Origin: Eledone cirrhosa | Lineage: Eukaryota | Assembly: GCA_964016885.1 (NCBI GenBank) | Contig: OZ024748.1 | Span: forward strand, 47,306,001-47,370,000 | Direction: 5' to 3' | Length of the DNA: 64,000 nucleotides | Part shown: one piece after another, positions 10,179 to 48,300 of the stretch | How positions within the stretch are numbered: position 1 is the first letter of the stretch | Layout of the letters: each line of letters opens with the position of its first letter | Notes under the pieces: generated by a model | The model's input: only the letters and a program-made list of their open reading frames with translations | Database searches by the model: none | Told to the model about the DNA's origin: nothing | Position numbers and translations under genes: made by a program

Positions 10179-10565
10179 TATATATATTATATATATATAT
10201 ATATATATATATATATATATATATATCCACAAAAAGCAAACGGAAACAACATAGTACAATGACGAAATATATTAATTTAACGCTTGATATAGTAGAAAAG
10301 GTATACGTTTTGGACACTACTTCTACATCAGAAGATAAACAGATACAGATATATATATAATGATATATAACATCGAGAATACACACAACACTTGCTTCAC
10401 CCAGCAAAATAATGACCCACAGAGCATACACAGACGTGATCCATAAACCTGGAAATGTTGAAAGACACAGTTGGATTGGTGGGTTCACCCGGGTGAGCAC
10501 TCGATGTTTAGGTTCACAAACATATATATATATATATATATATATATATATATATATATATATTT

Positions 10566-10710
10566 ATAGTGAAAAGATATGGTTACTCCTTCATTACATT
10601 TATGGGTTGGTGACGCGCGTTTCGCCACTGATCAGCTCGTACCGCGCGTCACCAAACCAATAAATATAATGAAGGAGTAACCAATCGTCCTTGTTATCTT
10701 TTCACTATAA
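10566..10710 (-). mobile_element. Fold-back element with 5'-clipped minimal hammerhead
   Basis: Minus strand reads ..ACGA-gct-gatcagt-ggc-GAAA-cgcgcg-TC|acc; flanking arms are inverted repeats. Confidence 0.6.
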
Positions 10711-10875
10711 TACACTCTGTCTAGCTCTACACCTCGACACTGAAGTGAACCTAAACATCGAGTGCTCTCTCGGGTGAACCCACAGTAACTCCAAGCTACA
10801 CTACCTGGATATATGTACATATATATATATATATGTACATATATCCAGGTAGTGTAGCTTGGAGTTACTGTGGGT

Positions 10876-10996
10876 ACCCGAAGAAGGGCTTATGCCCGAA
10901 ACGTCGTCCTCCACCTACCCCCCACTCTCCTGAGCGTGAAGCTAATAAACATTTGTCGTACTGCCTCTCTGTTCTGTCCCTGTTCAATTTTTTATT
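10876..10996 (+). mobile_element. Family J PLE-type terminal repeat with minimal hammerhead (also 32692-32895 and 53316-53380, minus)
   Basis: CCGAAGA or CTGAGGA-agggc-ttat-gccc-GAAA-cgtc; shared tail taataaacatt..gtactgcctctctgttctgt; stem I weak. Confidence 0.65.
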
Positions 10997-11458
10997 ATAT
11001 ATATATATATATATATATCCGTGGCTGACACATTTCAGCTCGCTACTATATTGGTATATAATGGATGATCGCATTTAATGTCCGTTAAAGGTTCTTGGCA
11101 CTACCATTGTTACCATCGCTTTCCTCTAGCCATGGAGCTTGGAGACATGAACCGAATGCTACCATTCTATTTTATATCAATGTGAACTGCTATTTCTAAT
11201 AGCCATCTTTTCACCCCTTGATAATTTGTGTGTGAGACACGTTGGCTGAGTGCTTCTGACGGGAACTAATAGATTGATTCTTTTTAGCTTCCCGTCCCCA
11301 CGTAAAATTTATAAATTTGTAAATCAGTGGCTAGTTGAGAGATAGAGCCCTATTGGTTGCCAGTTAATCGCTTTACCGTGTCGGTTGTCACAAACAGTCA
11401 TGACCGGCACGGGCCGGTGTTTGGATTAGTCGATCGATTGGTTATTGGTTAGGCGATA

Positions 11459-43204: not shown

Positions 43205-43431
43205 CATTATGGCAGCTACGCGAAAATAACCAACAATTTAACCTAAAATGGGATATAATAGCGTACCTCTCCATTATCCACGGACAGGAATTTTGTAAAT
43301 TGTGTTATATGGAATTATTTTGTATTATGAAATCCAAAAATATTTTATTTAATAACAGAATAGAGCGATCGTTATACTGGAACCATCGCTTGAAATCTAC
43401 ATTTTCATATTACAAACACTACCAGGATTGA
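43205..43431 (+). pseudogene. C-terminal half of a second PLE GIY-YIG endonuclease type
   Basis: [39 protein letters not shown] fits the W.LK..I.W.I..C.LC..E..I..LN.R.E..C.H pattern of PLE endonucleases; starts at (TA)n. Confidence 0.7.
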
Positions 43432-44254
43432 ACGCCTGTCTCCATCTCCGTCTGATTGTCAAAATACATATTAACATTCTCTATTAGTCTTAATTCTATC
43501 AACTCTTCTATTCTTTACCATTTAATATAAACTGCTATAGATAAAATGAGATTTCTTAATTCAATTCCCTAATGCATATACCAGCAGGCTACCAGCATTG
43601 TTGTTATTCAGTAGCAATGAAAATCTCCCTCTTCCTTAATTGACACTTTATAATTAATACTACTACACCAAACGACCAGCCCTGTCCATTGTTCAATTGG
43701 TCAAGTATAGATTAAAATAGGCACTCCCAAAAATTCTTATTTACATAAAGTAAACCATATACTCATTGTATTCTCATTAGAAACCTTTATATACTTGTTT
43801 ACCAGTAAATTGAATTGCCATCTGTCATATACTATCCCCTCTCTTCTTCCTTTATAATATAAATATTTCAATATATAAATATAAATATTTCAATATATAA
43901 ATACTTCAATATATAAATACTTCAATTTTTCTGATTTTTTCCAATTTATCCAATATCTCAGAAGAAGTGACAACTGATTATACATTTGCTATCGAATACT
44001 TGCTAACATTATATGATTACGCAAGCAGCGATACATAGGTATTCCGTCTGTTACAGAAACATATGTCAATACCTAATAAATTCCTTTTTAAAAAAAAGCA
44101 CTTTCATTTTATATTCGTCTTTTCTCTCTCTCTCTCTCTCTATATATATATATATATATATATATATATATATATATATATACAGTATATATTTATATAT
44201 ATATATATATATATGTATAATGTATATATATATATATATATATATATATATATA

Positions 44255-44442
44255 CCAGTGTCTGTCCTTAGGGCATCAACATACGTTATCCTTGGTTTTC
44301 CTCGTCCAGTGTGTTCATGCAGGGGCTCCCACAGGAACACTGAGTGCAGTGTCAACTCTGGATGTCGGTGAGCATGTCCAGCTAACCTCAGTCTCCTCTG
44401 TGTCACTTTTGAGCTGACTTTTGGGAGGCTCCCATACAGCTC
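44255..44442 (-). mobile_element. Internal RTE fragment homologous to 1373-1560
   Basis: [37 protein letters not shown], running straight into (TA)n. Confidence 0.85.
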
Positions 44443-45302
44443 TTATGGTGCGCTTTCATCAGATAAAATACAGATTTGTTTTATAAATAAATATTGACAT
44501 TCCCGGAAAAAAGACAACCTCATCGGTTGAAATTCGCTGGATAGTGGAGATAATTGAGGGTGATACAAAGTTGTGAGTGAGTATGCAAATGAGTGTCAGG
44601 AAAATTGAAACAAACAGCGGTTTATTTAAATTAAACTGTTGGAAGGAAATAGATGTAAAAGGGAGAGAGACAAAAAATTGAGAGGGAGAGAGAGAGAGAA
44701 AAAATATATTGAATGGGAGGGAGATAGAATAGTTAGATGGGAGAGAGAAGAGAATAGAAAGAGAAAGAGAGAGAGATAGAAGAAAAAAGAGAAAATATAT
44801 AATATTGAGAGAGAGTGAAGGATAGAACAAATATTGAGATGGAGAGAGAAAGGAAAAAGTATTGAGAGGGAGAGAGAAAAGAATATTGAAAAAAATATTG
44901 AAAATAAGAGGGAGAAAGAGTAGTGAGAGGGAGAGAGAAGAAAGAGAAAGCGAAAGAGGGGCGAAGTGAGCGAAGAAATACATTTTTTTTTCTGACACTC
45001 ATTTGCATACTCACTCACCATTTTGTATCACCCTCAATTATCTCCAACTATCCAGCGAATTTTAACCGTTGAGGTTGTCTTTTTTCCGGGTTTGTCAATA
45101 TTTATTTATAAAACAAATCTGTATTTTATCTGATGAAAGCGCACCATAATTTACCTTGGTCGCCCTTGAAATATATATAATAAAATAATTATGGTTTTAA
45201 AAATATAGTTTCCATTTACTCCACTAAACTGTTGAGTGCTTTATATCAGTTATAAAAATGTTTAAGCATGTTGAATCCCAACAAATTAAATATAAGCTCT
45301 GC
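44443..45302 (+). mobile_element. Family D element with about 160-bp inverted arms and hammerhead starting at 45122
   Basis: 44443-44604 inverted versus 44986-45149; tattttat-CTGATGA(45130)..GAAA-tatata-TA|ataaaata. Confidence 0.85.
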
Positions 45303-48300
45303 ATATATATATATATATATATATATATATATATTTAAATGCACACACACACACACACACACATATATATATATATATATATATATATATATATATATAT
45401 ATATATATATATATATAACGGAGGAAATGTGGTAAGGAACCAGGTACATCCATAACGCACCAAAGTACTCAATACTTAGGGTAGTAGAGTGAGTAATAGG
45501 AACGAGTAGGACCCCGACTGCTGAGTTCAAGCCGTTTCGACGGCTGATTTTGTGTATAATAGATATAGGAATATCATATATATGATTAGTATGGACACGT
45601 TAGCAACGATATATATATATATATATATATATATATATATATATATATATATATATATATATATATATATATATATATATATATATATATATATATATAT
45701 ATCGTTGCTAACGTGTCCATACTAATCATACATATGATATTCCTATATCTATTATACACAAAATCATATATATATATATATATATGTATATATGTATGTA
45801 GGTATATGTGCATGTATATATGTATGTATATATCTAAGTATGTATACATATATGTACGTATATATGTATACATATGTATATATATATATATGTATGTATG
45901 TGTATAAGTGCATGCAAGTCTTTATGCATTTATACATATATGTTTGTATATATGTATGTATATATATAAGTATATATAAATATATGTATGTATATATGTA
46001 TGTAAGCATGCATGTATATAAAAATTATAAATTTCTTCCTCGTCAGGGGCCTTTGAGACGAAGCTAATCAAGAATTCTCTTCGCAATAAAAGTAGACTTG
46101 AAGAGAATCGACCCAGTTAAATGTTCTATATTGCAACTGAATACAATACTGCCCTTTGTTAATTAACACTACCTTTTGTTATAAAATATTATATATATAT
46201 ATATATATATATATATATATATATATATATATATATATATATATATATATATATATATATGTACATATATATATATATATATATATATATATATATATAC
46301 TTATATATATACATATATATATATACTTATATATACATATATATATTATATATATACAACTATACATATATATATTATATATATATATATATATATATAT
46401 GTATACATATATACATGTTATATCTATATATACACACACACACATATATATATATGTATATATATATATATATATATATATATATACACACATATACAGG
46501 AATGTATGTGTGCACCCACAAACAATTATGCATAATTCAATATACTCATATATATATGTGTGTGTGTGTGTGTATGCGCGCTTGTGTGTGTGTGCGACTA
46601 TATGTATATATGTAAGTATATAGAACATATGTAGATGAAGGCTTTTTTTTCTATCAATACGCATATCTTGTCCATAGATCCATTTGCACATACATTCGTA
46701 CATAGATACGCATATACATTCATAAATACGTACTTACACACACACACACATACACACGCACACACACACACACCACACACACACACACACACACACACAC
46801 ACACACACACACACACACACACACACACATATATATATATATATATATATATATATAACGAAGGAATTGTGGTAAGGAACCAGGTGGACCATAATGCACC
46901 AGAGTACTCAATACTTAGGGTAGTAATGTGGGTAATAGGAACAAGTATGACCCCGACGGCAGACAGAACTCAAGCCGTTTCGCCGGCTATTTCTGGACGT
47001 CCAGAAATAACCGTCGAAACGGCTTGAACTCTGCCGTCGGGATCATACTTGTTCCTATATATATATATATATATGAATAAAGTTAGTCCTTCATCAGTGA
47101 TCTTCCAACCATCATTGGTATTTCATCGCTTTAAAGACCATATACCTCCGGTTGGTGCGAGCAACGGCTAAAGAAAGTCGTTGGGACACGTAAATAAGGG
47201 GAACGAGCGAGAGTGTAAACAAACAAAGATGGTAAAGCAACGAAAAATGAGGAAGAAAGAATCAAGTCCCAGATTTCCATGAATATAAGTTCGGTGAAAT
47301 CGTGAACGAGAGAGAATAAAGACCATCAAACTTGGTTGAAATGTGAGCAAGGAAGGAATTCCGCACAGGTCAAACGGGAGATATATATATATATATACAA
47401 TATATTCATATTCTTGCACCGTAACCACAATATTCCATTAAAGCGAGGAGGGTTGAGCACAGAGTAAATTAATCAAGTTTAGTTATATATATATATATAT
47501 TTAAATAGTACAATGAGGCAGGGCAGCCATATTTCCCTTGAATGCTATATAAACCTGAACAACCTTGACCACTAAATTTAATGAACGAAAGCTCTATGGT
47601 AGATAATCAGCAATGTGTGTAATAGTATGTGTAAAATAACGAAATACACAAACATACAGAAACACACGCACACACACCATCAGACATATATATATATATG
47701 TATGTATGTATTAGTCTTGCAAGGTTTTTGATATGAAATCGTGTGTTGAAACAAGTATTGTTGTGATATTGCCAGAAATATATAATAAAACACACTCACT
47801 CTTTGGTTTGGGATGGTTTTCGCTTCTGTATATTTTTATATCCCTATAGTTAATTTAACTGGCAATCGATATTTATCATATATATATATATATATATATA
47901 TATATATATATATATATATATATATATATATATATATATATATATATATATATATATATATATATATATGAATATATTTATATATATATATGAATATATT
48001 TATATATATATATATGAATATATTTATATATATATATATATATATATATGAATATATATATATATATATTTATATGAATATATATATATATATATATATA
48101 TATATATATATATATATATATATATATATATATATATATATATATATATATATGAATATATTTATATATATATATATATATGAATATATTTATATATATA
48201 TATATATATATATATGAATATATATATATATATATATATATGAATATATATATATATATATATATATATATATATATATATATATATATATATATATATA

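Follow-up and report, generated by a model that had tools for sequence, protein, structure and literature searches.

Inverted copies of neighbouring DNA at the 5′ junctions of Penelope-like inserts in a (TA)n-rich stretch of the Eledone cirrhosa genome

Can a retrotransposon that enters a self-complementary microsatellite copy the adjoining DNA in reverse? This question is raised by a stretch of 64,000 nucleotides from Eledone cirrhosa (contig OZ024748.1, positions 47,306,001 to 47,370,000 of the forward strand; referred to as the window), which carries many short inserts that appear to be of the Penelope-like element (PLE) type. An earlier note had proposed for four sites, here cases 1 to 4, that insert 5′ ends are joined to inverted copies of nearby DNA with the help of TA arrays. 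The phenomenon is real in cases 1, 2 and 4, and two further sites fit the same description, but case 3 does not, and the attribution had to be corrected.

Inserts and their inverted flanks

In the AT-rich animal DNA of the window (239 tandem-repeat rows), whose repeat landscape may resemble that of octopus genomes, self-comparison revealed numerous families of short repeats with a (TA)n end; most have a hammerhead-like core (CYGANGA...GAAA) near the opposite end. Their polarity, core toward the 5′ end and TA at the 3′ end, was fixed by one fragment, because it combines a putative GIY-YIG region with a core at 13285 and a TA end about 250 bases further on:

12539..13535, + strand: Penelope-like element, 5′-truncated and frameshifted, with putative GIY-YIG region, hammerhead-like core at 13285-13313 and 3′ end in TA

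The GIY-YIG region (12787-13083, with X at one stop) matches the Pfam family with an E-value of 5e-4 and 20.7 bits, under the cut-off of 22.6; the motif is visible. It occurs on the PLE fragment only, and the short inserts are non-coding. A Pfam search with the piece upstream of this region gave no match, the fragment being truncated below the reverse transcriptase core. The core pattern was matched in families J, D, F and G and in the PLE fragment, and in neither A nor P. The cores of J and the PLE fragment gave weak folds, and there was no hammerhead among the 150 Rfam rows listed of 362. The inserts share 5′ truncation, a microsatellite target and inverted 5′ copies with PLEs, and the window, judged by its sequence, seems to be densely filled with short, (TA)n-targeting, hammerhead-core inserts of this type.

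Case 2 comprises the following features:

45418..45546, − strand: family A insert, 3′ end in TA at the left, 5′-truncated in the stem that other copies use for fold-back
45545..45609, − strand: inverted copy, joined to A by one exact nucleotide plus 6-of-8 imperfect homology
45610..45701: (TA)46, the mirror centre
45702..45766, + strand: template, a 65-bp island between (TA)46 and (TA)9

The mirror across the TA array, for which the earlier coordinates were off by one, holds at 63 of 64 positions between 45545-45609 and 45702-45766. The copy takes in the whole island, which has no second copy within the window, and its template was likely the local sequence. Read in the sense of A, the order is upstream flank, TA, inverted flank, element, and this order is the same in case 1:

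10778..10808, + strand: template, the 3′ end of a family P element that adjoins the TA array, multi-copy in other runs
10809..10844: TA array with symmetric GTAC interruptions, the mirror centre
10845..10875, − strand: inverted copy fused to J, with imperfect microhomology around ACCCGA and a 2-nt slip
10876..10995, + strand: family J insert, 5′-truncated at the hammerhead-like core, 3′ end in TA

As had been claimed, 10833-10875 repeats 10778-10820 in reverse complement (43/43), and the 5′ end of J follows directly. This perfect copy takes in the GTAC interruption of the array, and it stops where its continuation has TCACCCG in common with J, again with the 2-nt slip. Contigs from four of eight public runs (X1, X2, X3 and X5; at most three samples, two studies) were placed on 10560-11700; runs X1 and X2, in which the word shares are small, were used for family-level contigs only. 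In contigs of X1, X2 and X3, J runs on upstream of 10876 with its own, different sequence, which makes the fusion with 10845-10875 a peculiarity of this locus. What was copied, on the other hand, is the 3′ end of the high-copy family P, as is evident from contigs that span 10657-10802. Thus, the inverted copy of a neighbour stands, but that neighbour is an older element and not unique host DNA. The copy was likely made locally from the adjacent sequence. To the right of J, 11028-11690 looks unique in the window, yet it is multi-copy in runs X3 and X5. Exact-motif scans of metagenome contigs for additional junctions of families A and J yielded 0 loci.

The features of case 4 are:

36736..36787, − strand: insert K2 (52 bp), consisting of a 23-bp mirror of 36691-36713 and a 31-bp extension
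36785..36893, − strand: inverted copy of the (TATG)n/RTE truncation junction
36894..37607, + strand: 5′-truncated long interspersed nuclear element (LINE) with the C-terminus of a restriction-like endonuclease (REL), inside (CATA)n of the inverted copy
37691..37799, + strand: template, (TATG)14 and the first 25 bp of a 5′-truncated LINE

The LINE at 37775 presumably belongs to the RTE type, judging from its motifs, and the mirror had been ascribed to its 5′ junction. While the local mirror is real, the RTE is its template and not its cause: the copy lies about 0.9 kb from the RTE junction and contains it, and the RTE 5′ probe in the 46-insert census described below found no mirror at the RTE's own 5′ junction. 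The RTE was thus rejected as the cause, the copy being located at the K2 5′ end and upstream of the REL-type LINE. The non-microsatellite part of the mirror is 36785-36809 versus 37775-37799 (25/25), the rest being (CATA)n versus (TATG)n, and the right end of K2 joins the copy by a 3-nt microhomology (GTA). Since a LINE truncation junction should be unique to one locus, the template was in all likelihood local. When the REL LINE is disregarded, the region reads copy-(TA)43-template, like cases 1 and 2. Alternatively, the complementary DNA (cDNA) of the REL LINE may have looped back to the flank on its downstream side; whichever reading holds, the RTE served as template.

The REL-type LINE, which we take to be Dong/R4-like, encodes a piece with 50% identity to a 431-amino-acid protein in which a Cys/His knuckle and a PD...E..K motif can be recognized by eye. 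A PDB sequence search with this piece gave no meaningful match. For both LINE fragments the nearest Atlas clusters are eukaryotic and commonest in Mollusca, which is a lead only. At 36691-36787 the 23-bp mirror is tail-to-tail across (TA)10, and the extra 31-bp piece has the size of the optional PLE tail.

Two further mirrors end at insert 5′ ends, the second of them weak:

9566..10483, + strand: left arm of a large inverted duplication, with a later family A insertion at 9986-10178
11891..12538, − strand: right arm, ending exactly at the 5′ junction of the PLE fragment
3587..3654: a fifth, weak mirror of the flank (16/16 bases, AT-rich) on either side of a TA array, reaching up to the 5′ end of a family D insert

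The arms of the large duplication, about 0.6 kb, agree at 325/333 and 255/258 positions, and the template appears to have been local sequence. A short interspersed nuclear element (SINE) runs uninterrupted across 11891 and is cut at 10483, and a family A copy entered the left arm only. This duplication would have arisen by either of two routes. In the first, a fold-back of about 2 kb formed at the PLE junction, and the inner left part was lost upon insertion of P; in the second, the right arm was the template for the 5′ join of P and was cut into by the PLE afterwards.

Case 3 concerns family P itself:

10645..10808, + strand: main copy of the high-copy element P, with contigs spanning 10657-10802
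10479..10638, − strand: the 5′ arm of P, inverted and diverged, split by (TA)20 into 10479-10517 and 10564-10638

The inverted arm is joined to the left arm of the 0.6-kb duplication at 10483 via a 5-nt microhomology (GTGGG). That 10481-10517 mirrors 10745-10781 was correctly seen (35/37; maximal extent 10479-10517 versus 10745-10783), but here element faces element and no host DNA is involved. The two differences lie at 10768 and 10770. In X3 the letters of the left arm account for 62828/69293 and 67164/69114 of the summed depth at these positions; as both match the family majority, the arm follows the family and not its neighbour, or else the neighbouring copy mutated twice later. Opposite-strand joints within family P were also found in contigs of X1, X3 and X5. 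We therefore reject case 3 as a host-DNA duplication, the arm being the inverted 5′ arm of P with family-majority letters. It is the head-to-head inverted 5′ copy that parts of PMC8557442 and PMC3846280 describe for PLEs. For this case only, twin priming on two RNAs is the preferred reading.

Frequency of mirrors at TA arrays and insert junctions

To what extent are such mirrors tied to inserts? The flanks of 188 TA-containing fields were given a mirror score, with random flank pairs as control. Twenty fields pass the score, and six abut the array on both sides, two of these being of low complexity. With 6/188 versus 29/2817 random pairs, abutting flank mirrors exceed chance. All four non-microsatellite abutting mirrors (3612, 10819, 45609 and 50169) are located at inserts.

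For a census of insert junctions, the ends and polarity of 46 inserts were set by hand, with the hairpin already known for five hairpin rows, and junctions were compared using 45-base probes. On the 5′ side 17 inserts match themselves, 11 match sequence outside and 18 show no mirror; the respective numbers on the 3′ side are 2, 10 and 34. Of the two 3′ self rows, one is case 1 viewed from the side of P, the other the 23-bp mirror of K. On the 5′ side, curation removed A4 and A7 (self hairpins matching another copy), D5 and G3 (low complexity) and D6 (ambiguous), and merged K2 with the REL LINE. All ten outside rows on the 3′ side were dropped: five of low complexity, four a neighbour's arm or fragment and one inside the large duplication. 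After this hand curation, flank mirrors remain at 5/46 5′ junctions and 0/46 3′ junctions (Fisher p = 0.028, post hoc; leaving out the weak case raises it to 0.058).

The commonest 5′ junction is a fold-back of the element on itself (17-19 of the 46), and self and flank fold-backs together make up about half of the hand-set 5′ junctions. In family A, the short arm finds its best match in its own main arm in four of six hairpins, with one tie and one failure, which speaks for a new fold-back with every insertion rather than descent from a palindromic master copy. An origin of family A as miniature inverted-repeat transposable elements (MITEs) or foldback DNA transposons was rejected, as its arms are unequal, its loops differ and its arms mostly match their own partner.

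A model for flank mirrors and its rivals

In cases 1, 2 and 4, an inverted copy of adjacent DNA ends at the 5′ junction with short microhomology. The mirrors end exactly at the 5′ truncation points, and the copied ‘host’ DNA often consists of older repeats. These mirrors are probably best explained by a resected (TA)n DNA end that forms a hairpin, is extended and anneals to the cDNA. Integration would leave two single-stranded 3′ ends, that of the cDNA and that of the upstream flank, which finishes in (TA)n. Prior to joining, either of them could fold back onto the strand to which it belongs and serve as primer there. Fold-back of the cDNA, usually at the ribozyme stem, would yield a hairpin element, the common outcome. 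Fold-back of the flank via self-complementary TA would copy 16 to several hundred upstream bases in reverse; the hairpin would then be unwound, and its new end would anneal to the truncated cDNA by 1-8 nt of microhomology. Copy and insertion would belong to one event, and the elements would be the cause of these duplications, with the element's reverse transcriptase, Pol theta or Pol delta as the polymerase. The earlier note had let the nascent strand switch to the flank; priming by the flank's own 3′ end is more plausible, even though both routes yield the same sequence.

Several points weigh against this model. All counts are limited to one 64-kb window, and the raw outside numbers in the census (11 versus 10) differ between the two sides only after hand curation. 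Case 3 fails as a flank copy. In case 1, an RNA-templated P fragment is a possible source, as the template is the end of a high-copy family; moreover, the contigs placed there were cut at 10806-10847 and 10985-11027, which leaves neither TA array bridged and no empty allele in view. For case 4 as well as for the 0.6-kb duplication, either of two inserts could be responsible. Finally, there are inverted duplications that have no clear insert 5′ end, at 51175-51536 and at 28460-28552/28933-29025. At the far breakpoints, template hairpins with stems of at least 5 bp were seen at 2/6 points versus about 13% of 3000 random ones, numbers too small to be informative.

It is unlikely, though it fares best among the alternatives, that the cDNA 3′ end and not the flank switches template onto flanking DNA, in case 4 by looping of the REL LINE cDNA to the downstream flank. 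According to parts of PMC11371274 and PMC11331408, the cDNA 3′ end in R2 snap-back primes on cDNA or, less often, on nearby rDNA. The prevalence of cDNA self fold-back in the census speaks for such a switch, and so does the REL probe, which also scores the case 4 mirror. However, for upstream mirrors the cDNA would need a strand that, by established knowledge, 5′ resection removes, or it would have to invade a duplex. A cDNA switch also requires no TA centre, yet cases 1 and 2 and the mirror at 3587 are TA-centred. That the imperfect homology in case 2 carries the letters of the flank is a weak point against it.

Twin priming, which we prefer for case 3, is improbable as a general explanation. 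Here, both DNA ends would prime on separate element RNAs and the cDNAs would join head to head, so that the ‘mirror’ would be a second retro-copy of whichever family happens to adjoin the array. In vitro, both strands are cleaved and extended by a PLE protein (PMC11167929), in support of twin priming for case 3, and inverted 5′-truncated copies are typical of PLEs in the portion of PMC8557442 consulted. The family-majority letters in the arm of case 3 and the high-copy template of case 1 would also suit this explanation. But it can account neither for case 4, in which a locus-specific junction was copied, nor for the 0.6-kb duplication, which spans SINE pieces and a TA array. For case 1, the 43/43 match including the TA interruption contrasts with only 748/4800 X3 contigs that are at least 99% alike over the whole stretch.

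Still less probable is that TA arrays break or stall forks unaided and that fold-back repair makes the mirrors, into which inserts arrive independently and delete. The two duplications that have no clear insert 5′ end would fit, and yeast local fold-back inversions need no transposon (excerpts of PMC11724301). In addition, whenever the 5′ join of an insertion removes part of an arm that was already there, the breakpoints necessarily fall together; 12538 could be such a case. Nevertheless, among the 188 TA fields none without an insert had a non-microsatellite abutting mirror, and curation left none at 3′ junctions. Sequencing, amplification or assembly fold-back chimeras are hardly credible: long TA arrays are generally error-prone and the case 1 arms are identical, but elsewhere the two arms are not the same (63/64, 325/333), a later A insertion sits in one arm and a LINE in another, and runs of two other samples (X1, X3/X5) contain contigs with opposite-strand joints of family P.

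A broader claim is possible but doubtful, namely that flank fold-back is a regular by-product of Penelope-like integration into a self-complementary microsatellite. It would accompany roughly 1 in 10 insertions here and copy neighbouring DNA in reverse over lengths from 16 bp to at least 0.6 kb (perhaps 2 kb prior to a later deletion). The MITE-like hairpins and local palindromes of the genome might then derive chiefly from these elements.

Known systems and further repeats of the window

The closest parallel is found in local foldback inversions at yeast double-strand breaks. According to the sections of PMC11724301 consulted, the broken end is resected and folds into a hairpin; after extension it is displaced and joined to the other end by 0-5 bp of microhomology, and the copies measure 5 to over 150 bp. 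By analogy, flank fold-back via (TA)n would match this process step for step. In contrast to the yeast breaks, the second end here is a retrotransposon cDNA, the hairpin is the proposed (TA)n target, and the record is a natural germline one lacking genetics. In parts of PMC11702581, the L1 end opposite that of target-primed reverse transcription likewise folds back before joining. Three L1 insertions have genomic inversions, three have templated nearby DNA, and inverted duplications are named among the target-site rearrangements. Judging by the same parts, L1 differs in that the inversion described in caption S9A results from hairpin cleavage and is not a duplication, that such events are rare and that microsatellites are not targeted.

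R2 snap-back is alike in that the 5′ junction carries cDNA or nearby target DNA in reverse complement, self copies being more frequent than flank copies. In the portions of PMC11371274 and PMC11331408 consulted, however, it is a low-frequency class in engineered human cells, ascribed to the cDNA end, whereas fold-backs constitute about half of the hand-set junctions here. PLEs themselves have an inverted 5′ pseudo-long terminal repeat or head-to-head structure, with an inverted 5′-truncated copy by the 5′ end and junction palindromes; together with their optional tail of 30-40 bp and (TA)n preference, this covers case 3 and the hairpin elements. In these descriptions (PMC8557442 and PMC3846280, in part) it is element sequence that is inverted, not flanking DNA across the target array. 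We found no description of TA-centred flank mirrors at PLE junctions in literature of incomplete coverage, with few subscription papers. The chemistry has already been described; novelty may lie in how often it occurs in Penelope-like elements and in the TA-centred form it takes there. Completion of the PLE 5′ junction and the origin of the inverted structures are posed as an open question in the part of PMC8557442 consulted. In a genome with thousands of such junctions, self and flank fold-backs would become countable, and (TA)n could be compared with other microsatellite targets.

Many hairpin repeats of the window would be mis-annotated as MITEs or microRNA precursors; the Rfam matches of hairpins among the 150 of 362 rows listed are microRNA-like and all sub-threshold. 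Family A hairpins are located at 9986-10178, 32450-32673, 46829-47058, 48352-48529, 51973-52179 and 52911-53107. In five of the six, the short arm breaks off at one and the same internal TA and is rejoined to a TA array; the loops vary among copies. Family F hairpins (28017-28255, 39064-39268, 42822-43022 and 20964-21130) fold back at or just before the hammerhead-like core, the one at 28017 with an additional 25-bp loop hairpin. Other long hairpins, most of them with hammerhead-like cores, lie at 49120-49523, 49973-50171, 50219-50466, 51704-51871 and 528-691; the core-like motif of 51704-51871 is oriented outside-in (tail-to-tail). One of the two family H copies (21211-21417 and 50860-51060) folds back at an internal ATATAT palindrome, and the other reads through. 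The inverted arms 44443-44604/44987-45149 and 60054-60179/60441-60566, with spacers of 260-390 bp that hold part of the element, are likely long-loop self fold-backs.

The near-perfect 360-bp palindrome at 51175-51536 has no spacer, TA centre or core motif and is followed by a short direct copy of part of its arm at about 51535-51555. A serial templated insertion at 28880-29025 consists of 28335-28382 in direct and then 28460-28552 in inverted orientation, and ends in (TA)37. Long minisatellite arrays are present at 5650-7360 (periods 87/171), 14920-16094 (42) and 30610-32180 (about 180/305). At least six tRNA-SINE-like copies in a single orientation are clustered at 57470-58713.

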